DNA from: Candidatus Campbellbacteria bacterium
GTDB lineage: Bacteria > Patescibacteriota > Minisyncoccia > Phycocordibacterales > EsbW-18
DNA: 64,000 nucleotides
Reading direction: 5' to 3'
Assembly (NCBI GenBank): GCA_024653945.1
Contig: JANLIT010000001.1
Span: forward strand, 20,641-84,640
The position numbers and the translations under genes were made by a program. Numbering within the stretch: the stretch's first letter is position 1; each line of letters starts with the position of its first letter. This document shows positions 14,848 through 33,475 of this stretch, in pieces. The notes beneath the pieces are model-generated. The model saw nothing but the letters and a program-made list of their open reading frames with translations, was not told the origin of the DNA and did not search any database.

Positions 14848-17148
14848 TTATTTTGCCACGTGTACTGCCTCATCAAATGAAACAGAGAGCAGTTGGGAGA
14901 TAGCGTCTGCTCCCATCGTAATTCCGTAGAGAACTCCAGCTCGGGACATGGTCTCGCGATTGTGTGTAATCAAAATAAGTTGTGTTTTCTTTGAAAGATT
15001 TTCAATCATATCGCCGTAGCGTTTTGAGTTTGCTTCATCCAGTGCAGCGTCTGTTTCGTCTAAAATAATGAATGGTGGAGGATTCACCTGCGACATTGCA
15101 AAGATAAGTGCAATTGACGTCAGCGCACGTTCGCCACCTGAAAGCATTTCAAGACCGTGAATTTTTTTGCGCGGAAGCGCAACATGGATTTCAACACCTT
15201 CAAACACTTTTTCTTCACCCTCTGCCCCATCTTCAGTACCATCATCATCTTCAATATCTTCAATATCTGTGTCTCGTTTTATTTTGCGAACTTCGCGCAC
15301 TATTTCAAGAGATGCATTTCCACCATTAAACATGAGCGAGAAGAATTCGGAGAACTGCACATTTATTTTCTTTACACCTTCGGCAAATTCACGCGCGAGC
15401 GTTTCTTCAAGATCGGTGATGAGCGCGTGCAAGGACTCTGCTGATTGTTCCAAATCGGCAACTTCTTTTTCTAAAAACGCATCACGTTGTGAGACCTCTT
15501 CAAATTCTTTCATAATATCGTCTCCGCCACCGCTTCCCGCATCCTCAAGACGAACTTTCGTTCGCTCAATTTGTCGCTTGCGTTCGTGCTGTTCAGAACG
15601 TTCTTCAACAACACCACTCTCGGCAAGTGCACGAGATAGATCATCAAACCGAACTGCCTCAACGCCTACCAGTGCCCCTGCTTCAAGTAATTCCCGTTTG
15701 TATTCTTCTTCTTCAAGTTTGAGTGTGCTTTTTTCGCTCGTCAGTACCTGGATATGCATGCGAACTTCTTGTTGTTCGTTTGAGAGTGTGAAAATGCGTC
15801 GTTCCATTTCGCGTCCTGAGTGTATGTCAGATTCAATGGTGTGTTGGATTTTTTTGTATTCCTCCGCGTACTTTTTCTCTTCAGCATCTAGCGTGGCAAT
15901 TTCTCCTTCTCGTTTCTTTTTGTCATGTTCAAGTGAGGAAATATTTTCTCGCACCTCGGCGATATCATTGTCACGAGCCGTTTCACCACGCACCGTGTTC
16001 ATAAACTCAGACACGAGCGTCTTGATAGCACTGAGTGCGGCCTTAAACTCTGCTGGATCACCTTGAGACAATGCGCTGTCTATCAAACGTCCGAGAGAGG
16101 TCGTCATTGATGAGACGGACGTAAACGGGACGGTCTTGTGCGCTTCTTCGGTTTGTTTGCGTTCTTCTTTTGCAAGGAGTGTTCGCAGAGCGGAAATTTC
16201 TCCTTCAATGCGTCCAACCTCTCGAACGGCCAAATCTTTCTTCTCACGAATGCTTCTCATTTTTTCTTCCGAGGAAAGGAGTGCGTCTGATGTTACGTCT
16301 TTTTGAGAGAGTTTCTGTAATTCTTCTCGGGCGTGTGTGATATCTTTTTGCAGTTCAAGCATTCGTTTCTCCAACGGGTCCAGCTCGTACGTAATACGTT
16401 TGAGTGTCGCATCAAGGTACGCTTTTTCACGGGCGAAATAATCTCGGTACGCCTGTTTCAAATCAAGTGCCAGTTCGCGCGCCTTTTCAACTTTCGCGAC
16501 TTGTTTATGTAAAAATGCGAGGTGTGGTTTGAGTTCACGGCGAATACTTTCCACTTTGTCTAAATTCTCTTGTGTTTTTTCCAACTTACGCTCACTCTCA
16601 TCTTTTTTGTAGTGATAGATTTTCAATCCCAACGCGTCTTCAATCATTGCTTTGCGCTCACGCGTGTTCACCGACAAAATTCTGTCCGCTTCTCCTTGAG
16701 AAATAATGTGGTGACCAGATGCGCCGATGTGTGCGCCAGAGAGCAGTTCAATCGTGTCTTTCAATCGCACCACTGAATCATTGAGACGATACTCGCTCGT
16801 TGCGTCACGATGAATGACTCGCTCAAGGACTACTTCATCAAAATCAATGGCAAACAAACGTCCCGATTCGGAGACATTGCCACGAGCCGTATTATCAAAA
16901 GTAAGCTTGACATGAGCGCGGTTGCTTCGCGGGGAGGTTTTTGAACCATTCCAAATGAGGTCCTCAGTGCGCTTACCGCGCATTGATTTGATTGACTGCT
17001 CACCAAGAACAAACCGAAACGACTCGGCAATATTTGATTTACCAGAGCCGTTCGGGCCGACAATGGCCGTAATGGGTGTTTTAAATTCAAGCGACGCTTT
17101 TTTGGCGAACGATTTGAATCCGGAAAGTTCTAGAGATTTGAGGTACAT
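14848..17148 (-). CDS. smc: SMC-family chromosome-segregation ATPase, short form with no recognisable hinge
   Basis: N-terminus MYLKSLELSGFKSFAKK...ITAIVGPNGSGKSNIAESFRFVLGEQSIKSMRGKRTEDLIWNGS (Walker A). C-terminus LSGGERALTSIALIFAMSQVNPPPFIILDETDAALD (signature and Walker B). Only 766 aa. Confidence 0.85.
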   Translation of the reverse strand: MYLKSLELSGFKSFAKKASLEFKTPITAIVGPNGSGKSNIAESFRFVLGEQSIKSMRGKRTEDLIWNGSKTSPRSNRAHVKLTFDNTARGNVSESGRLFAIDFDEVVLERVIHRDATSEYRLNDSVVRLKDTIELLSGAHIGASGHHIISQGEADRILSVNTRERKAMIEDALGLKIYHYKKDESERKLEKTQENLDKVESIRRELKPHLAFLHKQVAKVEKARELALDLKQAYRDYFAREKAYLDATLKRITYELDPLEKRMLELQKDITHAREELQKLSQKDVTSDALLSSEEKMRSIREKKDLAVREVGRIEGEISALRTLLAKEERKQTEEAHKTVPFTSVSSMTTSLGRLIDSALSQGDPAEFKAALSAIKTLVSEFMNTVRGETARDNDIAEVRENISSLEHDKKKREGEIATLDAEEKKYAEEYKKIQHTIESDIHSGREMERRIFTLSNEQQEVRMHIQVLTSEKSTLKLEEEEYKRELLEAGALVGVEAVRFDDLSRALAESGVVEERSEQHERKRQIERTKVRLEDAGSGGGDDIMKEFEEVSQRDAFLEKEVADLEQSAESLHALITDLEETLAREFAEGVKKINVQFSEFFSLMFNGGNASLEIVREVRKIKRDTDIEDIEDDDGTEDGAEGEEKVFEGVEIHVALPRKKIHGLEMLSGGERALTSIALIFAMSQVNPPPFIILDETDAALDEANSKRYGDMIENLSKKTQLILITHNRETMSRAGVLYGITMGADAISQLLSVSFDEAVHVAK

Positions 17149-17194: not shown

Positions 17195-17237
17195 ACGGAC
17201 AAATAGAAACTGCCGGAGCGCGCAAACGCTCCGGCAG
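17195..17237 (-). terminator. intrinsic terminator of the GC-rich cassette gene
   Basis: Perfect 11-bp stem ctgccggagcg / cgctccggcag, followed on the minus strand by a T-rich tract. Confidence 0.7.
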
Positions 17238-17243
17238 GAAAAC

Positions 17244-17750
17244 TTACGGCCGTGACCTGTTGCCCAACAGAGAGAGATCCCAAGGATGAATCTTGTCTCC
17301 ATGTTTTGTGCACCCCCAGCACGGTGACCCCACACGTGACAATCCCCTGAGCTCCGCTAGGACAACACCTTGCCGCACAAGATTAAGAACTTTGATGCTC
17401 CAACCCGAGGGAACAAACACATCAAGAAGAGATGCTGATTGGTGGTAGATGGTGTCAATGTCCAGAATCCTTCGCTTGTAGTCAATGCCTTCACGGATTT
17501 CCATTCGACCCCAACATCCACTCGGGTCTTCGGAAGCAGGGAGAAATCGCCTCAGGAGATCCTTTTGGGAGATGGGAGAGAGCTGCTGATCTTTCCTGGT
17601 CTCGTTGACCCCCTGAAGAAGGTCCTTGAGCTTGTTCCAACCCCATGTGGAGTCTGCAAAATTGAAAATTGCAGGGGCTACCAACTTCGGCTCCTCTATC
17701 ACGGTCTTTCTCCTTTGTCGCCTTTTGGCGGCGGTTGTTGTGGAGAACAA
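17244..17750 (-). CDS. hypothetical protein encoded in a GC-rich (~52%) insert
   Basis: 168-aa ORF whose only full-length start is TTG with no obvious SD (first internal ATG about 80 codons in). Composition differs from its neighbours. It has its own terminator. Confidence 0.3.
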   Translation of the reverse strand: MFSTTTAAKRRQRRKTVIEEPKLVAPAIFNFADSTWGWNKLKDLLQGVNETRKDQQLSPISQKDLLRRFLPASEDPSGCWGRMEIREGIDYKRRILDIDTIYHQSASLLDVFVPSGWSIKVLNLVRQGVVLAELRGLSRVGSPCWGCTKHGDKIHPWDLSLLGNRSRP

Positions 17751-17822
17751 ACTGGTCGCAATAACCAGTTTTCCGTGTATATAATAAAACAGTGAAATAG
17801 AAATGTCAACTTACTACTATCC

Positions 17823-18518
17823 CTACCGTGCCCATCCTTTTGCGGTGAGAGCATTCACTGCAGCTTCCTGTTCAGCTTCTTGTTTTGATTTACCATCACC
17901 TTCTGCAATTTTGACACCTTTAAGAAACACACCGACAGTAAATTGTTTATCGTGGTCAGGACCTTCTTCTTGCATCGTTTCATACGATGGCGTCACACCT
18001 GTTTTATCTTGTGCCAACTCCTGAAAACGACTCTTCGCATCTCGCCACAAATGTTTACCCACAATATCGTCCGTCAAAGGAAGGAGGGAGCGTTCCACAA
18101 ATTGTTGAGCGGCGGCATACCCACCATCAAGAAAAAGAGCACCCACAAGCGCTTCAAACGCATTTGCAAGAATATACTGTCGCGCACGTCCAATATCTTT
18201 TGATTCACCTTTGGAAAGAAGTAAAAACTCATTCACACCCAATTCCATTGCAACCGTTGCAAGCGTTGAGGTGTTTACCAATCCTGCACGATATGATGTT
18301 AAATCCCCTTCTGTTTTTTTTGGATATTTTGCAAACAAAAATTCAGTACTTATAAGTTCCAGTACCGCATCGCCTAAAAACTCTAAGCGTTCATTGTGTT
18401 GTCCTGTATGTGCATGCGATTCGTTGATGTATGAACGGTGTGTCAGCGCAGTTAACAATATTTTGTCATCGGTAAATGTGTGACCAAGTTTTTCTTCTAG
18501 AGGTTTCAGGTTTTTCAT
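17823..18518 (-). CDS. rnc: ribonuclease III
   Basis: From the internal Met: MKNLKPLEEKLGHTFTDDKILLTALTHRSYINE...ERLEFLGDAVLE (RNase III signature), with a C-terminal dsRBD. The ORF-track start at 18578 lies in the repeat region. Confidence 0.85.
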   Translation of the reverse strand: MKNLKPLEEKLGHTFTDDKILLTALTHRSYINESHAHTGQHNERLEFLGDAVLELISTEFLFAKYPKKTEGDLTSYRAGLVNTSTLATVAMELGVNEFLLLSKGESKDIGRARQYILANAFEALVGALFLDGGYAAAQQFVERSLLPLTDDIVGKHLWRDAKSRFQELAQDKTGVTPSYETMQEEGPDHDKQFTVGVFLKGVKIAEGDGKSKQEAEQEAAVNALTAKGWAR

Positions 18519-18581
18519 AAAAAGTGGAAGTTGGAAGTTAGAGGTGGGAAGTTGGTGATTAGTTTTGGTGATTCGCATTTT

Positions 18582-18677
18582 GTTACATGCTTCATGCTAT
18601 ATGTTTTCTGTTACATGCTTCATGCTATATGTTTTCTGTTACATGCTACACGTTACATGCTACATGCTACATACTAC
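18582..18677. repeat. tandem CATG-rich repeat: 2 perfect copies of a 28-bp unit (gttacatgcttcatgctatatgttttct) plus about 1.4 degenerate copies (gttacatgctaca / gctacat)
   Basis: Read directly from the sequence. Intergenic between the nusB-NUDIX stop and the rnc start. Related copies occur at 42790-42885 and 4640-4655. Confidence 0.8.
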
Positions 18678-19564
18678 TTTTGTGATATGAGTGTAATTGC
18701 TTTCGTGATAAGTGGCAAAATATCATCGTAAATATTGAGATTGAGAATTTCTGAAATACGAAACCATCGTCCATCATCAAGTCCACCAGATGTGCCGAGT
18801 GTTATTTCATGGAATGGTGCTTCGGCTAAAAAGTACATCACTCGCTTGCGTACTTTTCCTCGTTCAGGATGTGATGCAACATATTCATTTGAACCAAGTT
18901 CATCTTGAATCGTGACCGGAAGACCGAGCTCCTCTTGAATTTCACGCGCGGTTCCCGCTTTCACATCCTCATTTTTTTCAATCTTTCCTTTTGAAAGTGT
19001 CCAGTGCCCGAACACGTCATGCACAAAGGCGACGTAAATATCCTTTTCGTGCTTTGCGTAGACCACGGCACCACCGAGCATCTCCAATGGTAATTCATCG
19101 TACGGAACGTCTTTCTTTTTCTTTGACTGTTCGTCTTTGCCTGGCTCGCCCATTTCTTTATATACAGAACCAAGCACGCCGTTCACAAAACGACTCGACG
19201 TGTCTCCACCAAATGTTTTGGCAAGTTCAATAGCTTCGTTGATGGCAACTTTTGCAGGAACATGCGCACGGTCACCAAACAATAATTCGTACAGCCCGAG
19301 GCGCAGAACACTTCGGTCAACAAGAGAAATTTTATCTATGGGCCACTCGGGAGCTGCTTTTTGGATAATAGTATCAAGGTCGGTTTGTCGTTCAATAACA
19401 CCATGCATCAGTGCGCGCATAAAATCACGCTCGCCAATACCAGGCGCATATTCCTCAATAGTATTTTGGAGAATCGAATCAACCTCTTTCAGATTAACAG
19501 TAGAAAAATCTATCTGAAAAAGAGTTTGAAGAACAACTGATCGTGCGAGATGTCGATTACTCAT
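18674..19564 (-). CDS. nusB: NusB transcription antitermination factor fused to a C-terminal NUDIX hydrolase domain
   Basis: N-terminal half (RHLARSVVLQTLFQIDF...INEAIELAKTFGGDTSSRFVNGVLGSVYKE) is NusB. C-terminal half carries a Nudix box (GKIEKNEDVKAGTAREIQEELGLP). Confidence 0.8.
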   Translation of the reverse strand: MSNRHLARSVVLQTLFQIDFSTVNLKEVDSILQNTIEEYAPGIGERDFMRALMHGVIERQTDLDTIIQKAAPEWPIDKISLVDRSVLRLGLYELLFGDRAHVPAKVAINEAIELAKTFGGDTSSRFVNGVLGSVYKEMGEPGKDEQSKKKKDVPYDELPLEMLGGAVVYAKHEKDIYVAFVHDVFGHWTLSKGKIEKNEDVKAGTAREIQEELGLPVTIQDELGSNEYVASHPERGKVRKRVMYFLAEAPFHEITLGTSGGLDDGRWFRISEILNLNIYDDILPLITKAITLISQK

Positions 19565-19610
19565 GTGGTGTGCAACGCTTTTTCAAACGCTGACGATTTT
19601 TTCGATGAAA

Positions 19611-19895
19611 CTATTTTACTGTTTTCTTAGTCTCCTCTTTGTCTGCTTTTGGTGTTTTGGCTACAGCTTCTCCACGTGCTCGAATTTTTACTTGTTTGCG
19701 ACGAAGGGAGCGTTCTTGCTTGCCCTTTGCGTCAAGGACTGTCCGCCCTCGGTAGATACCACACACAGAACACGCTTGGTGTCGGATATGTTTTGAGCCA
19801 CAAGATGAACACGTTGAAAGACGTGGCTCTGTGAGCGCGTGGTGGGAACGTCGGCTTCCCGTCTGTCCTACTGTATGTCGCATTCGAACGGTCAT
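19611..19895 (-). CDS. rpmF: 50S ribosomal protein L32 with a Lys-rich C-terminal extension
   Basis: RRSHHALT...CSSCGSKHIRHQACSVCGIYRGR matches the L32 zinc-ribbon core. Confidence 0.7.
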   Translation of the reverse strand: MTVRMRHTVGQTGSRRSHHALTEPRLSTCSSCGSKHIRHQACSVCGIYRGRTVLDAKGKQERSLRRKQVKIRARGEAVAKTPKADKEETKKTVK

Positions 19896-19930
19896 ATGAA
19901 AAATACTATAGCACGTCAGATAATTTCATG

Positions 19931-19970
19931 CAAAAAGAAAAAGCCCGGTGCGGTTTGAACGCACGCGGGC
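19931..19970 (-). terminator. intrinsic terminator of the GC-rich NUDIX cassette
   Basis: Stem gcccggtgcg / cgcacgcgggc, followed on the minus strand by tttttcttttt. Confidence 0.7.
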
Positions 19971-19991
19971 TTCGGCGAAGGACTGTTCGGG

Positions 19992-20468
19992 TCAGATGAG
20001 ACCCTCGTTCTGGGCGAGGTAGTAGAAAGCCGGAAGCTTGTTCACCCCCCATGCGATGACCTTCTTGAGTGCCTCCCGATGAGAGTAGACCACCATCTCC
20101 CTACTGAGAAGAGAGTGGTCGATCTTGGTCCAGACAGGAGGTGGGAGTGTGTCTCCGTTGTCCTGCTTGACCTCGGTTCGAATATCTCCCTTCCACTTCG
20201 TGGCACCCCAGAAATCTCTGAGGGACAAGGGATTGTTGGGGTCTTCACAGCTGACCACTCGCTCTGCATTGAGCGGGGTAATGCCCAGCTCTTCGAGGGA
20301 TTCACGGCTCACAGCGGAACTCGGAGTTCCGTCGGTATCTTCCTCCATGCCACCCGGGATTTTGGCCTGCGTCCGCCGACCAAATGGAGGAAGAAGAAGA
20401 ACAAACGGTTCCCCGTTTTCCTCCTTGATGTACGCGATTCCGCAGAACCGAACTGTTTTTCCGCTCAT
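19992..20468 (-). CDS. NUDIX hydrolase (GC-rich, ~55%)
   Basis: Nudix box GGMEEDTDGTPSSAVSRESLEELGI. Strong SD AAGGAGG before the ATG. Confidence 0.7.
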   Translation of the reverse strand: MSGKTVRFCGIAYIKEENGEPFVLLLPPFGRRTQAKIPGGMEEDTDGTPSSAVSRESLEELGITPLNAERVVSCEDPNNPLSLRDFWGATKWKGDIRTEVKQDNGDTLPPPVWTKIDHSLLSREMVVYSHREALKKVIAWGVNKLPAFYYLAQNEGLI

Positions 20469-20571
20469 GGCGGCCTCCTTAGAAAAAAGAAGACGCCTGA
20501 TTAATTCAGGATTCGTCCGAATATATTATATGCTATTTAATATATTTGTCAATACATCGTAAGGTTCGACC

Positions 20572-21189
20572 TTACGGGCGAGTGTTTTCCGTAAGGTCGA
20601 ACCTTGAGGACACGAACCTCCTGCAAAACGTCTTTCGGTGTATGGGCGAAAGTCCCCTTTTAAGCAGTACCTGTATGTGTTTTTTGGTGCCATAGCCTTT
20701 GTGAACTTCAAATCCGTACTCCGGATACTTTTGGGCAAGTTCCACCATGTATTTATCACGTGTTACCTTCGCCACAATTGAAGCAAGTGCAATTGCAAGT
20801 TCTTTCTCATCCCCTTTGATGATAGTTTTTTGATGTATGAACTCTTGTGGTGCTTTTAATCCCCCATCAAGAAGAATCTGTGTGTCCTTGGGCATGTTCA
20901 CCGATTTCAGAGCGTCAAAAATTCCCTGAGCAATGGCGTGGGTAATTCCCTTTAAGTCTATTGTCCGCTCGCTTACCAATTGTGATGTATACGAGAGTGC
21001 GCCTTCTTTTTGTAAGCGCACAATTTCAGAAAACCATACTTCTCGTTTTTTAGGAGAGAGTTTTTTGGAATCGCGCACAATCGGAAATGCTTCTTGAACA
21101 TCAAGAGAGTGAATTGCGACACACGCCACAGACACTGGCCCCGCCAACGGCCCCCTTCCCGCCTCATCAATTCCAATAACAGTTTGCAT
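20572..21189 (-). CDS. rnhB: ribonuclease HII
   Basis: MQTVIGIDEAGRGPLAGPV...DSKKLS...HKGYGT matches RNase HII. Confidence 0.85.
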   Translation of the reverse strand: MQTVIGIDEAGRGPLAGPVSVACVAIHSLDVQEAFPIVRDSKKLSPKKREVWFSEIVRLQKEGALSYTSQLVSERTIDLKGITHAIAQGIFDALKSVNMPKDTQILLDGGLKAPQEFIHQKTIIKGDEKELAIALASIVAKVTRDKYMVELAQKYPEYGFEVHKGYGTKKHIQVLLKRGLSPIHRKTFCRRFVSSRFDLTENTRP

Positions 21190-21292
21190 CTCGAAATTGT
21201 ACCACTCTCTAAGTCTCAAGACGTTGCCTTGAGGAGATTTTGACATTTGTCATTTGGATTTTGAAATCTCTCTCCACAGGAAACTTTTCTGA

Positions 21293-24200
21293 ATGGGCGT
21301 GTACAATAGGAATATGTCTGCACCCTTCGTCCATTTGCACACACACTCCCACTATTCTCTTCTTTCTGCGCTTCCAAAAATAAAAGCGCTTATTGCGAAA
21401 GCGGTTGAATTGAAAATGCCCGCACTCGCACTCACCGATAATGGCAACATGTATGGTGCGATTGAATTTTACAAAGCATGCATTAAAGCAGAAATTAATC
21501 CAATTCTTGGTGTTGATTTTTATGTTGCATCTCGCACACGTTTTGACAAAGAAGCGGGCATAGACGCCAAGCGCGATCGGCTCGTTCTTTTGGCAATAAA
21601 TGATGTGGGATACAAAAATCTCATCAAACTTGTTACCTATTCGCACACCGAGGGATTTTACTATCGCCCGCGCGTTGACCGAGAACTATTGCAGAAATAT
21701 CATGAGGGACTTATTGCCATTCTCCCCATTTTCAATGGCCCACTTTCAAACGCACTTCGCAACAATGACACAGAGCGCCTGAACAGTGCATTTTCTTTTT
21801 ACCTTGAGACATTTGGAAAAGAAAATCTCTATCTGGAAATTACACACCATCCCGACGTTGATGGACATGAAGCACTTGTGCAAAAAGTAATTGCACTTGC
21901 ACGTGAAAAAAACACACCACTCATCGCCAGCAACGATGTCCACTACCTTTCTCCTGAAGATATGCCGGCACGAAAAACACTCCTCTCCATACAATCTGGT
22001 TCTGACTTCCGTGGTGGCGGTTTTACGTCTTCAGAGGCCGATTTTTCTTTTCTCACATCCGAGGAAATGTACAAACTCTTCAAGGACACGCCAGACGCAC
22101 TTGAAAACACGGTCAAAATTACACAGCGGTGCAAAGTAGAGATTCCGCTTGGCAATTGGCTTTTCCCAACCTTTAACATTCCCAAAGGCACCACGTATGG
22201 AAGTGAGTTGCGACTGCGCGTGGAGGAAGGAGTGGCACGACGCGAACTCACCAAGTCGGCAGAGGTAACAGAACGACTTGAATATGAACTTACTACCATT
22301 ATTTCAAAAGGATATGCGCCATATTTTCTCGTTGTGGCAGATCTTTTAGATTACGCGCGGGAACATACAATTTTGACCAACACTCGTGGTTCCGTTGCTG
22401 GCTCTCTGGTCTCGTACCTCCTCGGTATTACGACAGTGAACCCTCTTGAATATCAGTTACCGTTTGAACGCTTTCTCAACCCCCTACGTCCATCACCTCC
22501 TGATATTGATTTGGATATTGCAGATAACCGTAGGGACGAAATGATTGCCTATGCACGAGAGAAGTATGGGGAGGATAAAGTCGCACAAATTGGAACATTT
22601 GGAACCATGATGGCGCGTGGCGCGGTACGTGATACTGCGCGCGCTCTTGGTTTTGATTACGCGATTGGAGACCAAATTGCAAAACTTATTCCAATGGGCT
22701 CACAAGGTTTTCCTATGGGCCTGGATCGCGCGATGAAAGATGAGAAAGATTTGAAAGCGCTCTATGACCGTGACGAAGATGCCCATCGCATTATTGATAT
22801 GGCAAAAAAGATTGAAGGGTGTGCACGACATATCTCCGTGCACGCCGCGGGAGTAGTGATTTCCCCTATCCCGCTTATTGATATTGTGCCAACACAATTT
22901 GACCCAAAGGGCGAGGGTAAACTACTCACACAATATGACATGCATGCTGTGGAAGATATTGGCTTGCTGAAGCTTGACTTCCTCGGACTCAAAAACCTTG
23001 CCATACTTGCTGAAGCAATTCGCCGTGTGCGAAAGATTTATGATGTTGCTATTGATGTAGAAACACTGCCAATTGATGACACAAAAACATTTGAAATGCT
23101 TGCACGTGGAGATACCATGGCGGTCTTCCAGCTTTCAGGTCAGGCAATGACGCAATTTCTTAAAGAGCTCCGCCCCACAAGTATCCACGACATCAACGCT
23201 ATGGTTGCGCTCTACCGACCGGGTCCGATGAAAAACATTCCTGAATATATTGCACGCAAACACGGAAGGAGTCCTGTGCGGTATATGCATCCCAAGATGA
23301 AAGAGTTCCTTGAACGTTCATACGGTATTCTCGTATACCAAGACGACCTCATGACAACCGCTCTTGAAATTGCCGGCTACACGTGGGAAACGGTGGACAC
23401 GTTTCGTAAAGCAATCGGAAAGAAAATCCCCGTTGAAATGGCAAAACAACACATCATCTTCGTTGAGGGATGTGTTAAAAATTCTGGCATGACCACGGCG
23501 CAAGCAGAGGATATGTGGAAACTCTTTGAACCATTTCAAGGATACGGATTCAACAAAGCACACGCCGCAAGTTACGGACGTTTGGCATACCAAACCGCAT
23601 ACATGAAGGCGCACTACCCCACTGCGTACATGGCGGCCGTACTTTCGGCTGACGCGGGAGATGTTGAAAAAATCTCCGAGCTTATTGCTGGATGTGTCTC
23701 TATGGGAATTGAAGTACTTCCTCCAGATATTAATGAAAGTTATGGTGTTTTCTCCGTCGTTACAAAAGATCTTGCTGAAGATGGCACAGAGAAAATTCGT
23801 TTTGGCCTGCACTCAATTAAAAATCTTGGAGAAGGTATTTCTGACGTTATTATTGAAGAACGCAAGGAACACGGAGTATACGAGTCACTTGAAAATTTTC
23901 TTGAGCGTATTCATGACCGTAACCTCAATAAAAAATCTCTTGAGGCGCTTATTCAATCGGGTTCACTTGATCGTTTTGGCGAACGGGGTCACATGCTCGC
24001 AAACGTTGTAACGCTCTTGGCTTTTAATAAAGAATCATCTGAACGGGGCAAGGCACAGGAATCACTCTTCGGCGCAGGAACAGCTGGTCCGTTTGTATCA
24101 CACATACACCTTGCGGATGCAGAGAGCGCGACCCAGACACAAAAACTTGTCTGGGAAAAAGAACTTCTTGGTTTGTATGTCTCTGGCCATCCGCTGGATG

Positions 24201-24538
24201 TGCACAAAGTATTTCTAGAAAAAGTGCCAACAACTATTGAGAAAATAAAAGCACTTCCTAGTGGTATGACGACGGTTATCTATGGCCTCATTGAAGACGT
24301 GCGCCCTATTATGACAAAGAAAAATGAAAAGATGGCGTTTGTGCACATCAGTGATTTTACAGGAACACTTGAATTAGTACTTTTTCCAAAATCGTATGAT
24401 GAATTCAAAAATATTCTGATTCCTGGAGCGTGTATCGGTGCAAAGGGGAAAATTTCTGTACGCAACGGAGAAATGAGTATGCTCGCTGACAAAGTAAAAT
24501 TGCTTGGTAATGCGCCCGAAGTAGCGCCCGTTAAATAA
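21293..24538 (+). CDS. dnaE: DNA polymerase III alpha subunit (PHP, polymerase core and OB domains)
   Basis: PHP motif HLHTHSHYSLL, with DnaE-type conserved blocks throughout 1081 aa. Confidence 0.95.
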   Translation: MGVYNRNMSAPFVHLHTHSHYSLLSALPKIKALIAKAVELKMPALALTDNGNMYGAIEFYKACIKAEINPILGVDFYVASRTRFDKEAGIDAKRDRLVLLAINDVGYKNLIKLVTYSHTEGFYYRPRVDRELLQKYHEGLIAILPIFNGPLSNALRNNDTERLNSAFSFYLETFGKENLYLEITHHPDVDGHEALVQKVIALAREKNTPLIASNDVHYLSPEDMPARKTLLSIQSGSDFRGGGFTSSEADFSFLTSEEMYKLFKDTPDALENTVKITQRCKVEIPLGNWLFPTFNIPKGTTYGSELRLRVEEGVARRELTKSAEVTERLEYELTTIISKGYAPYFLVVADLLDYAREHTILTNTRGSVAGSLVSYLLGITTVNPLEYQLPFERFLNPLRPSPPDIDLDIADNRRDEMIAYAREKYGEDKVAQIGTFGTMMARGAVRDTARALGFDYAIGDQIAKLIPMGSQGFPMGLDRAMKDEKDLKALYDRDEDAHRIIDMAKKIEGCARHISVHAAGVVISPIPLIDIVPTQFDPKGEGKLLTQYDMHAVEDIGLLKLDFLGLKNLAILAEAIRRVRKIYDVAIDVETLPIDDTKTFEMLARGDTMAVFQLSGQAMTQFLKELRPTSIHDINAMVALYRPGPMKNIPEYIARKHGRSPVRYMHPKMKEFLERSYGILVYQDDLMTTALEIAGYTWETVDTFRKAIGKKIPVEMAKQHIIFVEGCVKNSGMTTAQAEDMWKLFEPFQGYGFNKAHAASYGRLAYQTAYMKAHYPTAYMAAVLSADAGDVEKISELIAGCVSMGIEVLPPDINESYGVFSVVTKDLAEDGTEKIRFGLHSIKNLGEGISDVIIEERKEHGVYESLENFLERIHDRNLNKKSLEALIQSGSLDRFGERGHMLANVVTLLAFNKESSERGKAQESLFGAGTAGPFVSHIHLADAESATQTQKLVWEKELLGLYVSGHPLDVHKVFLEKVPTTIEKIKALPSGMTTVIYGLIEDVRPIMTKKNEKMAFVHISDFTGTLELVLFPKSYDEFKNILIPGACIGAKGKISVRNGEMSMLADKVKLLGNAPEVAPVK

Positions 24539-24542
24539 AAAA

Positions 24543-24565
24543 CGCCTCAGCCGGTGGCCGAGGCG
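24543..24565 (-). terminator. GC-rich hairpin overlapping the stop of the 24547-25023 gene, with a T-tract on the minus strand
   Basis: cgcctcagcc ggt ggccgaggcg, preceded on the + strand by aaataaaaaa (a T-run after the hairpin on the minus strand). Confidence 0.55.
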
Positions 24566-25023
24566 CTCTGCAGGAAGGATGGTGGCACCAGTAGTGGCCA
24601 CGCATCCAGATAGAGAGACCAGTCAACAGCTGGTCGCTTTTTTCTTGTGTGGTAAACCCACGAGCATTGCACCGGCAGATAGAAGCGCTTGAAGGCAACG
24701 CCCTCAGGAAATCTTTGAAGGAACACGCTATTCGGAATAATGAGAAGCAACTCCTCCTCGCCATCATGCATACAAAACGACACGAAGGTGAAGTCAGAAT
24801 CCTCGAGCGCTGACCGCGAGACACCCAGCATCGCGTAGTACCTGTCTCCGACCTCACGCATGTTTGTGAGGTGGTGCAGGCGACAATGAAGACCGTTGAC
24901 GAGAAACCGAGTTCTACTCACGGTCTTCATGCGATTTCCGTATAGCAAGTTCACGCGCTCCACAAAGAACCCGCACGCTCTTGCCTCTGCAAAAACGCGA
25001 TCCATCAGTTCGCTGTTGACCAT
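24547..25023 (-). CDS. hypothetical protein (158 aa) in a GC-rich (~50%) cassette
   Basis: The ATG at 25023 is preceded by GGAGGAG. The protein is His/Cys-containing and I recognise no family. It is convergent with dnaE and overlaps the thrS 5' region on the opposite strand. Confidence 0.45.
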   Translation of the reverse strand: MVNSELMDRVFAEARACGFFVERVNLLYGNRMKTVSRTRFLVNGLHCRLHHLTNMREVGDRYYAMLGVSRSALEDSDFTFVSFCMHDGEEELLLIIPNSVFLQRFPEGVAFKRFYLPVQCSWVYHTRKKRPAVDWSLYLDAWPLLVPPSFLQSASATG

Positions 25024-25099
25024 GTTCTCCTCCCATAGTAAGAGCAGTTGAAGAGTCTGCCAGAAACTATATACTACAGAGGTAGTACAAGTAATTATT

Positions 25100-26842
25100 T
25101 TGATTATGAATAAACATACCCCAGAAGAACTTGCCCCGATGCGCCACACGCTCTCGCACCTCATGGCCGCGGCAGTTTTAGAAATATATCCAGATGCAAA
25201 GCCGACCCTGGGGCCTGCCGTGGACAATGGTTTTTACTACGACTTTGACTTTCCTACCCCAATTGTCGACACTGACCTCAAGGAAATTCAGAAGCGGATG
25301 AAAAAAATGCTGTCATCGTGGAAAGAGTTTACACATGAGGAGGTTTCAAAAGAAGATGCACTTAAACGATTTGCAGGGAACGAATACAAAGAAGAACTCA
25401 TCAATGAGATTGCTTCCCGTGGGGAAAAAATAACACTCTACACATGTGGAGGATTTACCGATTTATGTCGTGGGGGACATGTTGACCATCCATCACAAGA
25501 TATTGATGCCGACAGTTTCAAAATCTCACATCTTGCCGGTGCGTACTGGCGCGGAGATGAAAAAAATAAAATGCTCACACGCATCTATGGTTTTGCATTT
25601 GCAACAAAAGAAGACCTTGAAGCATACGAGACACAAATTGAAGAGGCAAAAAAACGTGACCATAAGAAACTTGGACGCGAACTAGGTTTGTTTATGTTTC
25701 ACGAGACGGCACCAGGTATGCCATATTGGCTCCCTAAAGGACTTATTGTCTATAACGAGCTAGTTAACTTTTGGCGAGAAGAACACACACGTTTAGGCTA
25801 CCAAGAAATTGCCAGTCCGCTTGTAAACAAAGCTGAACTCTGGCACACATCTGGGCACTGGGAACACTACAAGGAAGATATGTTTATTGCGGACATGGGA
25901 GAAAATGAAGTATATGGAATTAAACCAATGAACTGTCCAAACGCCATGATAGTGTTTCAGTCTATGCAAGTAAGTTACCGAGACCTTCCTCTTCGACTTT
26001 CAGACACTGACCGTTTACACCGATACGAGCGTTCAGGAACACTCAACGGTCTCTTGCGCGTTCGCTCCTTCCAACAGGACGATTCTCACAACTTTATCTC
26101 AGAGGACATGATTGCATCAGAGTACGAACATATTTTTGAAATATGTAAAAAATTCTATGGTATTTTTGGTCTCGACTACTCATTCCGTATGGGGACACGT
26201 CCAGAAAAGTTCCTTGGTGATAAAGAGACCTGGGATAAGGCAGAAGAGGCACTACGAGGTATTCTTGAAAAATCAGATAAAGAGTATGTTGTTGCCGAAG
26301 GTGATGGCGCATTTTACGGTCCAAAAATCGATATTATTATGAAAGATACACTTGGCCGTGATTGGCAGATGGGCACCATACAGCTGGACTTCCAACTTCC
26401 TCGTCGGTTTGATCTCTCCTATGCCGCTGCAGATGGTACCAAGAAAACACCCGTTGTTGTTCACCGAGTCATTTACGGTTCTCTAGAACGCTTCATTGGT
26501 ATTATCATTGAGCATTTTGCTGGCGCACTTCCAACATGGCTCTCACCGATACAAATCTCCATCTTGCCCATTTCTGAAAAACATCTCACAAAAGCACGAG
26601 AACTAACCACGGCTCTGCAATCAGAAAACATCCGTGTACATTGTGATGATTCAAACGAGACACTTGGCAAAAAGATTCGTACGTGGAAGATAGGAAAAAA
26701 CCCATACGCACTTGTTCTCGGTGATAAAGAGGTAGAGAGTGGTGAACTCACGCTTGAAAAACGCTCTGGTGAAAAGGAAACCATTTCTCTTGAGGCACTT
26801 ATTGCAAAACTAAAAACAGAAATCTCAACCCGAGCTCTCTAA
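25100..26842 (+). CDS. thrS: threonyl-tRNA synthetase (no N-terminal TGS domain)
   Basis: HLMAAAVLEIYPDAKPTLGPAVDNGFYYDFDF marks the start of the editing/second domain. Class II motifs and an anticodon-binding C-terminus are present. Confidence 0.9.
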   Translation: MIMNKHTPEELAPMRHTLSHLMAAAVLEIYPDAKPTLGPAVDNGFYYDFDFPTPIVDTDLKEIQKRMKKMLSSWKEFTHEEVSKEDALKRFAGNEYKEELINEIASRGEKITLYTCGGFTDLCRGGHVDHPSQDIDADSFKISHLAGAYWRGDEKNKMLTRIYGFAFATKEDLEAYETQIEEAKKRDHKKLGRELGLFMFHETAPGMPYWLPKGLIVYNELVNFWREEHTRLGYQEIASPLVNKAELWHTSGHWEHYKEDMFIADMGENEVYGIKPMNCPNAMIVFQSMQVSYRDLPLRLSDTDRLHRYERSGTLNGLLRVRSFQQDDSHNFISEDMIASEYEHIFEICKKFYGIFGLDYSFRMGTRPEKFLGDKETWDKAEEALRGILEKSDKEYVVAEGDGAFYGPKIDIIMKDTLGRDWQMGTIQLDFQLPRRFDLSYAAADGTKKTPVVVHRVIYGSLERFIGIIIEHFAGALPTWLSPIQISILPISEKHLTKARELTTALQSENIRVHCDDSNETLGKKIRTWKIGKNPYALVLGDKEVESGELTLEKRSGEKETISLEALIAKLKTEISTRAL

Positions 26843-26850
26843 ACATACAA

Positions 26851-26890
26851 AAAACCACCAGTTTTTTCGAACGGTGGTTTTTTGTATTTT
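26851..26890. terminator. bidirectional intrinsic terminator between thrS (+) and the DoxX gene (-)
   Basis: aaaaccacc / ggtggtttt stem with A/T tracts on both sides. Confidence 0.6.
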
Positions 26891-26899
26891 CGAAAATCT

Positions 26900-27268
26900 T
26901 TAGAAAAGTACCAGGGATCCACCTCCACCAAGAAGAAGTACGAGTGCTCCGGCAAGTAACACAATATCAAATTCCCATCCCATTTTATCCATAGCAGAGA
27001 AGGGTACGTGCCACTTTACTAACTTAAAGTAGAGAGCGCCAAGCATAACAATCGCAAGGCCGAGGGCGGATAGTTTAAAAAGAAGACCGGTGATAACACC
27101 GAGTCCACCAAGTATTTCAACTAACCCAACAAACAACACCATGCCGGCAGACATGCCCACCATCGGAGCAAGTTTTTTTGCGCTTCTCACTTTTGGAAGC
27201 CCGTGGTAGATAAAGACAACTCCCATTGCTAGGCGAAGTGCTAAAAGTCCTAAATTACTGTAGTCCAT
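26900..27268 (-). CDS. DoxX-family membrane protein
   Basis: 122 aa with 4 TM helices. The LALRLAMGVVFIYHGLPK motif is typical of DoxX. Confidence 0.65.
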   Translation of the reverse strand: MDYSNLGLLALRLAMGVVFIYHGLPKVRSAKKLAPMVGMSAGMVLFVGLVEILGGLGVITGLLFKLSALGLAIVMLGALYFKLVKWHVPFSAMDKMGWEFDIVLLAGALVLLLGGGGSLVLF

Positions 27269-27391
27269 AGTAAGAGATTAATATATAAAAGATACATCTA
27301 GTAGTATACCGCATAAAAGAAAACGCCCCGCATCTCTCTGAACAAATCCAGAAAGGTGTAGGGCGTGAGGTGCAACGGAGAAGAAGAAAAC

Positions 27392-28249
27392 CTACTGGGA
27401 GGGCCAGGTGGGCATGAAGCCCTTCGGTTCTGGGATTACTCGACCCGGCGCGAAGGGTGACTCCATCACCGCACCAGTCCACCGAGACATGTCTCCCGTT
27501 TCAAAGCCATCCCGAAAGATGTCAGGTGTCCAAAGAACAACGGTTGTCGTCCCGCTGTTCTGGTACCCGTTCACCGAGTACCCGCCAGAGATGATGATGT
27601 TCTCCGTACGAATGTACTCGGCGGTCTCGTCGAGAATCGCCTGATCCGGGGTCGTTCCCCCAGGCCAGTATCCGTTCCCGACACCAACGTAGTAGAGCGC
27701 ATCCAAAACCGTCGAGTCGGATTCGCCGGAATTGTAGACGATGTCGTCACCGCCACCGAGTACCCGGTCGGGACCGTAGTTCACCCCTACACGCGTCGTT
27801 CCGTTGAGGGTTGTACCGACGAGGCTACCGATGTAGTTGAGCTGGCCGTCCGAGCTCAGAATGGCGAACTGAACGTTCGCCAAGGTGAACCACTCCAAAC
27901 CGTCGCCCAAGGCGACGAGCCCGAAGTGCATCCTGTTGCCATACTCGCCGTTGAATGGTGCTGGAGGTTCCGAGATGCCGCGCCACGAGCTGAAGCTCGT
28001 GACCATGACGTCGCCCGGGAAGTACCGGACGAGCGCCGAGTACGCTGTTGGGTCCGTCTCGCGGTCTCCAACGACCGAAAGACCGTTTTGAAGCGCGTTC
28101 ATGGCGTTCGCCAGGTAACCGCTCCAGCTCGGCGAGCCGAAGCCATTCGGCGCCGGCGAAGCATAGACATTGACCAAGATGTCGGCCGATACTGCCGTCG
28201 GCAAAGCGACGACGAACAGAACTGCGAGGACTACGACGAATCTCTTCAT
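27392..28249 (-). CDS. secreted hypothetical protein, GC-rich (~58%)
   Basis: ATG at 28249 with an AAGGAG SD. Signal peptide MKRFVVVLAVLFVVALPTAVSA. Gly/Asn/Thr-rich, beta-rich-looking. Confidence 0.5.
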   Translation of the reverse strand: MKRFVVVLAVLFVVALPTAVSADILVNVYASPAPNGFGSPSWSGYLANAMNALQNGLSVVGDRETDPTAYSALVRYFPGDVMVTSFSSWRGISEPPAPFNGEYGNRMHFGLVALGDGLEWFTLANVQFAILSSDGQLNYIGSLVGTTLNGTTRVGVNYGPDRVLGGGDDIVYNSGESDSTVLDALYYVGVGNGYWPGGTTPDQAILDETAEYIRTENIIISGGYSVNGYQNSGTTTVVLWTPDIFRDGFETGDMSRWTGAVMESPFAPGRVIPEPKGFMPTWPSQ

Positions 28250-28353
28250 CTTTCTTCTCCTTGTTGTTAGAGAACAAAAAAGAGGCACGATGCCTCCTCA
28301 TAACCACAAGAATTCTACATTATTCTCATGTTCTTGTCTAGACCACCCTTCTC

Positions 28354-29233: not shown

Positions 29234-29234
29234 A

Positions 29235-29283
29235 CGATTTCACAAAATCGCGTCGCGTAACTGTCCATTGAAACGCGACACCC
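29235..29283 (-). promoter_or_regulatory. operator/5'-UTR hairpin gtcgcgt-N14-acgcgac upstream of the ATL gene
   Basis: cgatttcacaaaatcgcgtcgcgt aactgtccattgaa acgcgac. The stem shows compensatory A/G-T/C changes relative to the 28804-28830 copy, while the loop is conserved. Confidence 0.5.
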
Positions 29284-29300
29284 TTATTCTACCATTCGCG

Positions 29301-29351
29301 CGCCTGCCTGCCCTGCCTGCCCTGCCTGCCGGCAGGCAGGCGGCAGGCAGG
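29301..29351. repeat. G/C-rich tandem-plus-inverted repeat (gcctgccct x3, then ggcaggcaggcggcaggcagg), a strong hairpin/cruciform
   Basis: Read directly. It marks the boundary between the ATL gene region and a GC-rich non-coding stretch. Confidence 0.7.
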
Positions 29352-30249
29352 AATTAGGGAATATAAAACGTAAAATATGGAAAATAATAATATGGAATAG
29401 AGAAAAGGCCCGAGCGCAAGCGTCGGACCTCTTCAGTAACTACCGGCGACCGGCAATGATACTGGAAAAAAGAACGGAATCTACGTCGACCTCTGGAGCG
29501 AACTCCTGAGGATAGATTAAGACGTTGGGAACAGAGCGGCCTATCGCTCTTGGATGATTTTGCGTGTCGCGACCGAAGTCGAGAGCACGTGTCCTGGGTT
29601 GGACATCATCCGTTCCCACGAGCCCTGTGTTTCACTGATGTGTCACACAGAACCATTACCGAGTTATTGCAGAAAGGGTGAGCTCCCTGCGATTTCTCGT
29701 TTGCCTCTGAGGCGATCGTGACCAATTCCTTTTAAGGGCGCTGGTCTCGTTCGTTGTGATGATGTCTGAAGGGTTTTGAGTCCTCCGAACACCCCACTGT
29801 AGAAGTTGTCGATTCTGCCGCAAGCGACAGAGTGCTAGGTCCGACATCTCCTCCTGGTGCAATGGAAACCGAGTTGCTCGCAAGATTGCTCCCGCGTGCT
29901 TCTCTCCCATAGTTTCCCTCGGCTCATTCCACGTTGTCTCACATCGACATTCCCTTTGAGGAGAAGCAAACCGAAGTTCGCAGTCATCCCAACTGGACTA
30001 TCGCGTCTGATGCTAGGCACCGGACTGAAGTGGTTTCAGAGAGAACATTGCACTGTTCTCCTTACCGTGTAACCAATCACTCTCGGTTTGTTGTGGTCCT
30101 CTTGCGAGAGCCGTAACGTACCGCATGCTTGGTATGTGAGAAGTATACGGATAGTGAAGTTGTTGTCAATCACATATCTCGTTTCTCAATAAAAAATACC
30201 TTTCGTCAAATTTTTTGTTTAAATGCATCCCTGTACCGAAAACAGCACG

Positions 30250-30278
30250 TTGACATACAGGAGATACCTGTATACTAT
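30250..30278 (+). promoter_or_regulatory. sigma70-type promoter TTGACA-N17-TACTAT whose spacer is a perfect palindrome (tacagg agat acctgta), a candidate operator
   Basis: -35 at 30250-30255, -10 at 30273-30278, exact 17-bp spacer. The inverted repeat spans 30256-30272. Confidence 0.6.
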
Positions 30279-30558
30279 CCATTTTGGTTCAGGCAAACAC
30301 TCGGTGGCTTGCTGGTCTTTCTGGGGGCGGGGATGAGCCCAAACCTAGAGAGTTTAAAGGGCGATGAGCCCGAACAGCCAATAGTAGACAGGAAACTGCT
30401 ACTGTTTCGAGGGTTCAATTCCCTTGGGGTGGCGGAGAGATGATCTTGAGTAGCGTAGACTAGGCGGGAGACGGAGAAGCTTTGGCTCTGGCCAAGGTGG
30501 AGTCGCCACTGAAAAACCGCCCTCTCAGGAAATATGCTCGAAGTCGCTTGAACCACAG

Positions 30559-30592: not shown

Positions 30593-30595
30593 ACA

Positions 30596-33424: not shown

Positions 33425-33475
33425 GACTCACAAAAGAAAATACCCCAGATGAACTGAGATATTTTCTTTCGCGTG

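Follow-up and report, generated by a model that had tools for sequence, protein, structure and literature searches.

Introduction

Flexible genomic islets, whether of the replacement or the additive kind, are a known system at conserved chromosomal junctions, and free-standing homing-endonuclease genes are likewise known between the conserved genes of phage genomes. In groundwater Patescibacteria, horizontal gene transfer (HGT) accounts for up to 13% of genome length, and 83% of the single-gene transfers occur within the phylum (PMC12455944). The targets of a clade of diversity-generating retroelements (DGRs) restricted to the Candidate Phyla Radiation (CPR, or Patescibacteria) have been reported without recognisable domains (Roux et al. 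2021, PMC8144416). Here we describe eleven short single-gene cassettes of GC-rich codon usage in a 64,000-nt stretch of contig JANLIT010000001.1, hereafter the window, from Candidatus Campbellbacteria, which is a member of the Paceibacterota (CPR/Patescibacteria). The cassettes are named below by the first coordinate of their open reading frames (ORFs), and one of them, 50513, is predicted to encode a DGR variable protein. The reading that we favour, at a little better than an even chance, is that the cassettes are real flexible accessory genes occupying slots between operons, gained or replaced after most of the AT-ward shift of the core genes.

The cassettes resemble the published single-gene transfers and islets of Patescibacteria in being single atypical accessory genes, which account for about 9% of the present sequence against up to 13% HGT in that study, and in having partners mostly among other Patescibacteria and occasionally in other phyla (PMC12455944). 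They differ in that several units keep their positions in a relative and that GC-richness tracks the gene family across genomes; in addition, no donor-recipient pair was identified for the cassettes here. The likeness to flexible islets lies in the variable content found between conserved smc/rnc, rpmF/rnhB and dnaE/thrS, and in divergent alleles within the same slot. Unlike islets, the cassettes are single genes of 0.3-0.9 kb, recombination tracts were not demonstrated, and a marginal rise in GC at third codon positions (GC3) was seen at two gene ends. Integron gene cassettes are similar as short single-ORF units, each with an inverted repeat after the ORF; however, the units here are dispersed and have their own promoters, and their hairpins, which have different sequences and a T-run after them, are terminators and form no common attC-like repeat. 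No integron integrase was found in the window, and mobility resembling that of integrons or of miniature inverted-repeat transposable elements was rejected because the cassettes have no repeats in common. Homing-endonuclease genes are likewise small, lie between conserved genes and have a promoter and a terminator of their own, and the fold of 24547 may resemble the PD-(D/E)XK nuclease I-Ssp6803I; but the evidence for this fold is weak (predicted local distance difference test, pLDDT, 59; template modelling score, TM, 0.35-0.41), an alignment of three sequences shows no conserved catalytic motif, and at most one unit would be concerned.

Composition and organization of the cassettes

The window has a GC content of 44.4%, and the short GC-rich ORFs that the original prediction had set against a 42-45% GC background are clearly present: the ten listed ORFs have GC contents of 0.515-0.640 and GC3 values of 0.56-0.86, while the GC3 of 39 core genes in the window is 0.369 +/- 0.040. 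An eleventh unit beyond the earlier list, 33622-33942 on the plus strand, has a GC3 of 0.68 and a codon-usage z of -5.3. The eleven units, which add up to 5.7 kb or 9% of the window, are as follows, with the variable region of cassette 9 on a line of its own.

17210-17809, minus strand: cassette 1, promoter-like sequence 17809-17781, ORF 17244-17750, terminator 17237-17210, GC3 0.56
19944-20552, minus strand: cassette 2, promoter 20552-20525 (12/12 matches), AAGGAGG Shine-Dalgarno site, predicted NUDIX ORF 19992-20468, terminator about 19971-19944, GC3 0.64
24539-25023, minus strand: cassette 3, ORF 24547-25023, terminator 24569-24539 overlapping the stop codon, GC3 0.64
27316-28340, minus strand: cassette 4, promoter-like sequence 28340-28312, ORF 27392-28249 with a signal peptide, weak hairpin and T-run downstream, GC3 0.74
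32672-33323, minus strand: cassette 5, promoter 33323-33296, ORF 32738-33232, terminator about 32714-32672, GC3 0.56
33622-33942, plus strand: cassette 6, small ORF with three predicted transmembrane segments, adjoining tRNA-Glu, GC3 0.68
39603-40447, minus strand: cassette 7, promoter 40447-40420 (12/12 matches, TG-extended), ORF 39650-40360, terminator about 39637-39603, GC3 0.76-0.78
40458-41246, minus strand: cassette 8, promoter-like sequence 41246-41218, ORF 40498-41154, terminator 40483-40458, GC3 0.65
50449-51329, minus strand: cassette 9, promoter-like sequence 51329-51300, predicted DGR variable protein ORF 50513-51139, terminator 50471-50449, GC 0.64, GC3 0.86
50516-50645, minus strand: variable region (VR) of the predicted DGR target gene, aligning with the pairs of VR and template region (TR) of contigs L050, L047 and L042
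59453-59804, minus strand: cassette 10, promoter-like sequence 59804-59776, ORF 59502-59723 of 73 aa, terminator 59482-59453, GC3 0.85
63411-63868, minus strand: cassette 11, ORF 63467-63862 (NCBI start), terminator 63432-63411, GC3 0.58

The atypical composition was seen with several measures. When the likelihood of their synonymous codons was tested against the core genes, the ten listed ORFs scored z = -4.0 to -6.1. Their tetranucleotide distances were 0.51-0.85 and included most of the largest values in the window; a length-matched null (500 nt) gave 0.415 +/- 0.036 and at most 0.535, and the two weakest outliers, 24547 (0.533) and 40498 (0.508), fell within its range. The GC peaks at the cassettes were also recovered by sliding windows. 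Most cassettes showed GC3 > GC1 > GC2 in the listed frame, which is a coding-type pattern, the exceptions being 17244-17750, where it was weak, and 32738-33232, where GC1 exceeded GC3. The spacers beside the cassettes have an ordinary composition of 0.37-0.48 GC, and the GC-rich tract therefore consists of the ORF and its terminator. The codon usage of the cassettes implies sources of about 52-70% GC, and the donor GC implied by pooled codon positions 1, 2 and 3 was 50%, 56% and 60%, respectively, so that no amelioration lag was seen. In short, the cassettes have the atypical codon and oligonucleotide composition by which horizontally acquired genes are recognised. The proteins of five cassettes have GenBank counterparts between MCR4274450 and MCR4274503 (locus tags NUW02_*) in a metagenome-assembled genome (MAG) named Candidatus Campbellbacteria bacterium, which are identical except for one at 99%; the counterpart of the 50513 protein in that MAG, NUW02_00315, is identical.

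The cassettes also carry expression signals of their own. Shine-Dalgarno sites, which had been described as AAGGAGG-like and nearly universal, precede nine of the ten listed ORFs, the exception being 17244 with its TTG start. Intrinsic GC-rich terminators follow 10 units. They include all five of those claimed earlier (17237-17210, about 19971-19944, 24569-24539, about 39637-39603, and 50471-50449) and five more, namely clear hairpins after 32738, 40498, 59502 and 63467 and a weak one with a long loop after 27392. A sigma-70-like promoter was recognised for about eight units, with 12/12 matches at 20552-20525 and 40447-40420. For cassette 1, whose ORF has a weak coding signal and lacks a Shine-Dalgarno site, NCBI annotates only 17244-17504 (86 aa). 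For cassette 7, the NCBI start was used for 39650-40360, which has an alternative GTG start at 40399 and one predicted transmembrane segment. We also considered whether the cassettes are structured RNAs. Folding of the ORFs alone gave a mean z of about -2.3 for the cassettes (five at or below -2.5) against about -0.4 for 12 core genes, which is suggestive but confounded by codon periodicity, and the frame-specific GC3 argues for coding; this possibility was rejected.

Slot contents in syntenic relatives

Pfam identified a dense run of core genes in the window, with rpoB, trmD, rpsP, RNase R, smc, rnc, a nusB-NUDIX fusion and rpmF, together with rnhB, dnaE, thrS, the mraZ/mraW/PBP/mur cluster, lysS, greA, mreBC, a proS-like gene, rseP, frr, mnmA, def, fmt and hpf. 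In DnaE-anchored scans of genome and metagenome collections, the best match was L001, a Paceibacterota MAG with a DnaE 59% identical to that of the window. A closer relative, L043, was reached through its homologue of 24547, and its DnaE, NusB-NUDIX and RNase III are 73%, 80% and 77% identical, respectively. The gene order smc-[slot]-rnc-nusB-rpmF-[slot]-rnhB-dnaE-[slot]-thrS is common to the window, L043 and L001. The comparison of slots covers the regions of 17244, NUDIX, 24547 and 27392, the slots of the other units lying beyond the coverage of the relatives.

The contents of these slots vary. The rnc-smc slot, which holds 17244 in the window, is 57 bp long and empty in L043 and contains unrelated ORFs in L001. 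The dnaE-thrS slot holds in L043 a homologue of 24547, P0044 (44% identity, GC3 0.67), and in L001 a gene of 34% GC that is MazF-like by eye only. The rnhB-rpmF slot contains a NUDIX gene in all three, with a mutual identity of just 21-28%, and 27392 is absent from the covered parts of both relatives. Thus, patchy presence among syntenic relatives was seen for 17244 and 27392 and not for 24547 or the NUDIX slot. The synteny comparison proposed with the original prediction had a divided outcome: an empty slot and an absence for 17244 and 27392, and for 24547 and NUDIX identical positions in L043 with elevated GC3 there as well. For several units we found what the original prediction had itself named as evidence against it: 24547 and NUDIX have counterparts at identical positions with similar GC, and 50513 and 32738 have relatives in the same lineage.

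The core genes and the cassettes differ in how their composition compares between genomes. Core GC3 is about 0.55-0.58 in L043 and L001 against 0.37 in the window, and flanking core orthologues of the window and L043 show a GC3 gap of 0.05-0.26, mostly above 0.12. The gap is 0.03 for 24547 and P0044 (0.64 vs 0.67), the one confirmed pair of cassette orthologues, and 0.09 for the slot NUDIX genes (0.64 in the window vs 0.73 in L043); both P0044 and the slot NUDIX gene exceed the L043 background of 0.55. A homologue of 40498 has a GC3 of 0.69 against 0.52-0.65 in contig L053, and another 0.89 against 0.83-0.87 in contig L051, while the 32738 homologue in L001 (0.47) lies under its local background of 0.57. 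A search for recombination tracts extending into neighbouring genes showed no more than a marginal rise in GC3, at the 3' end of rnhB and the 5' end of thrS. Pfam scans found no integrase or transposase domain in the window, and neither flanking repeats nor attC-like sites common to the cassettes were found.

Elsewhere, runs of small hypothetical ORFs with elevated GC3 (0.57-0.62 vs about 0.40) were observed at 18635-20385 of contig L046 and 15298-18495 of contig L050, and the DGR of L050 has small genes with LAGLIDADG and HNH domains in its vicinity. A mosaic content of small genes seems general in CPR genomes such as these.

The variable-protein gene 50513-51139

The 50513 family comprises 93 close relatives, and every named one belongs to Patescibacteria, Paceibacterota or Campbellbacteria. 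In the homologues on contigs L050, L047 and L042, the 3' end of the gene is copied within about 0.5 kb downstream as a TR of 124-135 nt, and the mismatches between VR and TR fall at TR adenines in 19/19 cases in L050, 18/18 in L047 and 19/21 in L042. An RVT_1 gene adjoins the homologues in L047 and L050, and a bAvd gene that in L042. These adenine-mismatched VR/TR pairs and the neighbouring RVT_1 or bAvd genes indicate that the family is one of DGR variable proteins. Aligned to the homologous VR/TR pairs, the window VR (50516-50645) differs at the AAC codons of the TR. Its 3' boundary, CCCGCTGCCTCGTCCGCAAGTTAG, is exactly the same as that of the L042 VR; the final 24 nt of the gene match that VR end but diverge from the TR end of L042. 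The gene therefore has a conserved 3' VR boundary like that of an initiation of mutagenic homing (IMH) site, followed by the GC hairpin 50471-50449, both with a putative IMH/cruciform role. No TR for this VR was found within the 64-kb window, and neither Pfam scans of ORFs nor tblastx with DGR regions detected a DGR reverse transcriptase or Avd there. On sequence comparison, 50513-51139 is a predicted orphan DGR target with an intact VR, the TR and reverse transcriptase not being nearby, and its diversification, if any, would act in trans.

These features can be set against the targets of the Patescibacteria-restricted DGR clade. The likeness is a C-terminal VR homologous to VRs on CPR contigs that pair with TRs mismatched at adenines, with an RVT_1 or bAvd gene alongside, and 50513, like the CPR targets reported, has no recognisable domain (Roux et al. 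2021, PMC8144416). It differs from those targets in that the 64 kb of the window contain neither a TR nor an Avd or reverse transcriptase gene, in a confident structure model (pLDDT 93) without a significant C-type lectin match in Foldseek, and in being GC-rich throughout, beyond the VR, in contrast to the AT-rich reverse transcriptase found with its relatives. The model, with a pLDDT of 93.2, gave no significant Foldseek match in PDB or BFVD, C-type lectins appearing at just E = 1.6-4.

Composition in this family was read from five contigs besides the window, four of them distinct (L041/L042, L046, L047 and L050). Family GC3 is 0.86 in the window, 0.70 in L046, 0.78 in L047, 0.75 in L050 and 0.80 in L041, while the backgrounds have a GC3 of 0.25-0.49 in L046, L047 and L050 and of about 0.59-0.63 in L041/L042. 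Four of the five distinct loci have contexts of about 40-44% GC, and L041/L042 is a short contig of 54-55% GC. The DGR reverse transcriptases adjoining the homologues are AT-rich, with a GC3 of 0.32-0.33. Adenine depletion by the DGR as the cause of the GC-richness was rejected: third positions are poor in T as well as in A, and GC3 stays even from one end of the gene to the other.

The protein is 72-83% identical across genomes, against about 44-53% for housekeeping proteins there; with L047, for example, identity is 75% for the 50513 protein, 53% for MnmA and 44% for MgtC. The homologues occupy different loci in L046, L047 and L050. For 50513, the one gene examined in this way, sequence similarity thus appears incongruent with genome relatedness, in keeping with horizontal acquisition. 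Between the promoter-like sequence 51329-51300 and the start of the gene lies a near-perfect 24-nt inverted repeat (51215-51266, 88% complementary, 4-nt loop), which may be a regulatory hairpin or operator.

Products of the other cassettes

The product 19992-20468, previously called NUDIX, has a Pfam match to PF00293 of 27.3 bits against a cut-off of 21.1, and its NUDIX box, GG..E..REs.EElG, aligns with those of the NUDIX genes that fill the slot in L043 and L001. It is accordingly a predicted NUDIX-domain protein, although against the NCBIfam MutT equivalogs its scores were far under the cut-offs. The 27392-28249 protein, described before as secreted, does have a predicted signal peptide. It also shares, at 45-48% identity, a domain of about 215 residues with large dockerin/HYR/cohesin proteins, in which this domain is N-terminal. 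With the dockerin protein P0001, which is encoded on contig L016 of 64% GC, the match covers residues 26-238 of the 27392 product and the N-terminal domain of P0001, at 48% identity; all relatives found sit on that contig. The two membrane proteins placed at 39650-41154 are borne out by one and five predicted transmembrane segments, respectively. The five belong to the 40498-41154 protein, for which the exhaustive HMMER search gave a large family, including P0020 (44% identity, on contig L053 of 52% GC) and P0054 (about 35% identity, on contig L051 of 67% GC, at native GC). Other genes of L051, for luciferase-like monooxygenases, a polyhydroxybutyrate (PHB) depolymerase and an aldo-keto-reductase, appear non-CPR; the taxonomy of L016, L051 and L053 is judged from GC and gene content only. 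In total, 4/11 proteins are predicted to be secreted or membrane-bound by a signal peptide or transmembrane segments, and the earlier statement that most of the products are secreted, membrane or unassignable proteins overstated the first two classes.

The exhaustive HMMER protein search gave the best 150 matches, with E below about 2e-20. Two relatives of 24547-25023 were detectable among the matches listed, one of them being P0044 at 44% identity. The structure model of 24547 has low confidence (pLDDT 59), and its weak Foldseek matches are to MepB, I-Ssp6803I, the SPARDA nuclease, Hjc and restriction enzymes (E = 0.004-0.6, TM 0.3-0.4). According to this model, the protein may have a PD-(D/E)XK-like fold, although an invariant acidic/Lys catalytic motif was not evident in a three-sequence alignment, and Pfam and PDB sequence searches gave no match. 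A homologue of 32738-33232 with 36% identity and a GC3 of 0.47 is present in the Paceibacterota genome L001 at 15739-16239, near thrS. For 39650 and 63467 just the self-match, and for 17244 no informative homologue, was found among the best 150 listed, so that weaker relatives may exist; for 59502, a protein search of low sensitivity found no homologue. The view of eight cassettes as ORFans was rejected as an artefact of a low-sensitivity word-index search, since the HMMER search placed 50513 and 40498 in large families and also recovered relatives of 24547.

Searches for mobile or defensive origins gave little. The PADLOC defence-system search returned zero matches, and tblastn of the cassettes against 50,697 phage records was negative. 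A PHROGs search gave marginal matches only, and IMG/VR a single weak match, to the DGR family. In plasmid collections, the AT-rich gene described below was matched and none of the cassettes was.

Origin of the cassettes

From the observed composition, expression signals, synteny, family distributions and DGR anatomy of the homologues, we infer a timing and a route of acquisition. The cassettes sit at permissive junctions between conserved operons of the Campbellbacteria chromosome, and would be a mixed set drawn mostly from a flexible gene pool circulating within Patescibacteria, with a few families also present in other, GC-richer phyla. They did not share the AT-ward shift of the core (GC3 0.37 vs about 0.55-0.58 in the two nearest syntenic relatives). 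Entry, or replacement by recombination via conserved flanks, would most likely have followed most of this shift, and the cassettes would keep the codon usage of GC-richer sources, probably for the most part other Patescibacteria. A decay calculation bears on this: with an ancestral GC3 of about 0.55 and a core that fell to 0.37, a gene under the same decay and now at 0.64-0.86 would need a starting GC3 of at least 1, so the cassettes cannot simply have stayed in the chromosome through the shift.

Two further features adjoin the cassettes.

31309-32595, minus strand: AT-rich atypical gene beside cassette 5, 428 aa, 24.8% GC, GC3 0.21
33475-33550, minus strand: tRNA-Glu(CTC), within the 33335-33550 feature

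The product of 31309-32595 matched nothing in Pfam, NCBIfam or PADLOC, and gave weak tblastn matches (23-25% identity) to hypothetical genes on Nostoc and Crinalium (cyanobacterial) plasmids. At 24.8% GC, it indicates that the flux of atypical genes is not of GC-rich ones alone. The 3' end of tRNA-Glu(CTC) has a 20-nt copy (18/20) at 33335-33354, 139 nt downstream, with an inverted T-arm-like fragment at 33411-33422 between the two. This copy, the sole mobility signature seen in the window, looks like an attachment-type (att) scar of a past integration and adjoins 32738, 33622 and the 25% GC gene.

Gain or replacement after the shift is favoured because the slot contents are variable, because the 50513 protein is 72-83% identical across genomes at different loci while housekeeping proteins are about 44-53% identical, because AT-rich atypical genes such as 31309-32595 coexist with the cassettes, because the att-like tRNA-Glu duplicate adjoins two of the units, and because of the HGT rates published for Patescibacteria (PMC12455944). 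Several observations weigh against it. Since 24547, and probably NUDIX too, occupy identical slots in L043, vertical descent is the parsimonious explanation for them, and both are GC3-rich in the two genomes, so that plain HGT would need repeated allele replacement. The 50513 family has a GC3 of 0.70-0.86 in all five distinct loci, whatever the background and beside an AT-rich reverse transcriptase, and no GC-rich reservoir genome for it was seen among the loci read. No integrase, transposase, common flanking repeat or attC-like site was found in the window; the nearest relative, at 73% DnaE identity, leaves the gains undated; and 17244, 39650, 59502 and 63467 gave no informative homologue in the searches made.

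A somewhat unlikely alternative is that the cassettes are resident, fast-evolving genes of the lineage whose G/C-ending codons are maintained against an AT bias, either by selection, for example on mRNA structure and stability or for expression tuning, or by GC-biased gene conversion at often-recombining loci. The elevation of GC3 over the background in the same families elsewhere is consistent with this: NUDIX 0.73 and P0044 0.67 vs 0.55 in L043, the 40498 homologues 0.69 vs 0.52-0.65 (L053) and 0.89 vs 0.83-0.87 (L051), and the 50513 family 0.70-0.81 vs 0.25-0.49 (L046, L047, L050) and about 0.59-0.63 (L041/L042), though the 32738 homologue in L001 is below its background (0.47 vs 0.57). So are the conserved slot positions of 24547 and NUDIX and the absence of an amelioration lag in the 50%, 56% and 60% of the pooled codon positions. 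The better folding of the cassette ORFs than of their shuffles (mean z about -2.3 vs about -0.4 for the core) points the same way, but perhaps merely reflects a three-base GC periodicity that shuffling destroys. Maintenance does not account for the AT-rich atypical genes in the window or for slots that are empty or otherwise filled in relatives, and transfer is needed anyway for 50513, which is more alike across genomes than housekeeping genes and lies at different loci. Furthermore, to our knowledge the GC3 gaps attributed to biased gene conversion are far smaller than the 0.2-0.5 seen here. In a broader form, GC-rich codon usage would be intrinsic to certain accessory families of Patescibacteria and actively maintained in them independent of the composition of the host genome, most clearly in the DGR family; we consider this unlikely. 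It seems equally doubtful that selection, or strong GC-biased conversion at hyper-recombining loci, lies behind the 'foreign' signature in place of recent transfer. As tentative candidates, such selection might concern mRNA structure or stability, avoidance of adenine around DGR activity, or evasion of AT-directed nucleases.

The original prediction had proposed singly acquired foreign genes and, as their source, one high-GC donor, for instance a high-GC host of a presumed epibiont. Its first part agrees with the atypical composition, the independent transcription and the variable slots. The repeated capture of single genes from one such donor, however, is quite improbable. It could explain a codon usage that implies sources of about 52-70% GC, the finding of 27392 relatives only on a contig of 64% GC, the native occurrence of the 40498 family on a 67% GC contig with non-CPR-like genes, and the membrane or secreted nature of 4/11 proteins. 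But these similarities to high-GC contigs amount to just 35-48% identity, and no cassette homologue above 50% identity was found in a high-GC organism. The GC3 span of 0.56-0.86 is unlike that of one source, two units have positions identical to those in L043, and the phage and plasmid collections gave no cassette match. The taxonomy of the homologues was split, with relatives of 40498 and 27392 on contigs of 64-67% GC and those of 50513, 24547, 32738 and the slot NUDIX gene in Patescibacteria, which contradicts a single donor for at least four units. It is hardly credible, finally, that the cassettes are artefacts, that is, chimeras of assembly or binning, or structured non-coding RNA instead of genes. 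The source is indeed a MAG, the coding signal of 17244 is weak and its start lacks a Shine-Dalgarno site, and the window contains the GC-rich, ORF-poor and strongly structured stretch 29395-30140. Nevertheless, the eleven separate inserts of 0.3-1 kb are bounded by native-looking AT-rich promoters and spacers, with the gene order kept in two other assemblies; in-frame GC3 is far above GC2 for most of them; and the Pfam NUDIX match, the signal peptide, the transmembrane helices, the large families with conserved columns and one model with a pLDDT of 93 all speak for genes. Gain or replacement of flexible genes after most of the AT-ward shift remains the reading that we favour.

Other features of the window

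The stretch 29395-30140 (minus strand, 746 nt, about 53% GC) lies inside an ORF-poor gap, 29234-30595, and has a promoter-like TTGACA-16-TATACT at 30169-30142 and a terminator at 29421-29408. Its minimum free energy is -282 kcal/mol against -237 +/- 8.7 for shuffles (z = -5.15). No frame-specific GC signal was seen in it, Rfam gave nothing at E <= 1, and it has no similarity to the syntenic loci. It is a candidate large structured non-coding RNA.

In addition, the intergenic regions 33943-34559 and 57559-58067 form, on either strand, structures far more stable than those of shuffles (z = -5.5 to -9.6), and they contain several perfect hairpins of 13-14 nt and a perfect 28-nt direct repeat (57520-57547 / 57622-57649). 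A small ORF preceded by a Shine-Dalgarno site, 34091-34303, lies within the first of them. Tandem arrays with a 7-nt period occur at 18584-18677, 42824-42874, 50348-50391, 37893-37925, 9381-9411, 54909-54933 and 4633-4664, with the units TACATGC x13, TGCTACA x7, AAGTTCA x6, GGTAGTA x4.7 and others. Several are located in short spacers directly upstream of rnc, lysS, frr and an ftsL-like gene, and 54909-54933 is within mnmA.

Large repetitive surface-type proteins are encoded at 9422-11329 and 11466-13796, both on the minus strand. One has repeats of about 150 nt and SpaA-like prealbumin domains, and another a Peptidase_S74 (endosialidase chaperone) domain. The gene 5736-6398 (minus strand) codes for a Ser/Thr/Gly-rich secreted protein of 220 aa with raised GC2. 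These three proteins likely have roles at the cell surface or in host interaction in an epibiont.

Conclusion

In kind, the finding is ordinary, a known flexible genome of Patescibacteria together with a known element type. What is new as instances is the slot architecture, the orphan VR-bearing member of a large uncharacterised family, and the fact that this family is GC-rich independently of the background. In the segment of CPR chromosome read here, flexible genes with transcription of their own, set in fixed slots between operons, take up about 9% of the sequence, which fits the published HGT estimates for Patescibacteria. The orphan DGR target predicted here represents a large CPR-restricted family of variable proteins with a confident predicted structure and no detectable structural relative. 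The feature that stays unexplained is that GC-richness tracks the gene family and not the host genome. Since the 50513 family is GC-rich whatever the background, with an AT-rich reverse transcriptase beside it, its GC-richness is not the signature of a donor genome. Thus, compositional outliers in CPR genomes cannot naively serve to guess hosts, and the step from a high-GC gene to a high-GC host is unsupported. The question raised for the biology of these bacteria is why the 50513 family and a few others stay GC-rich in whatever genome they are found.

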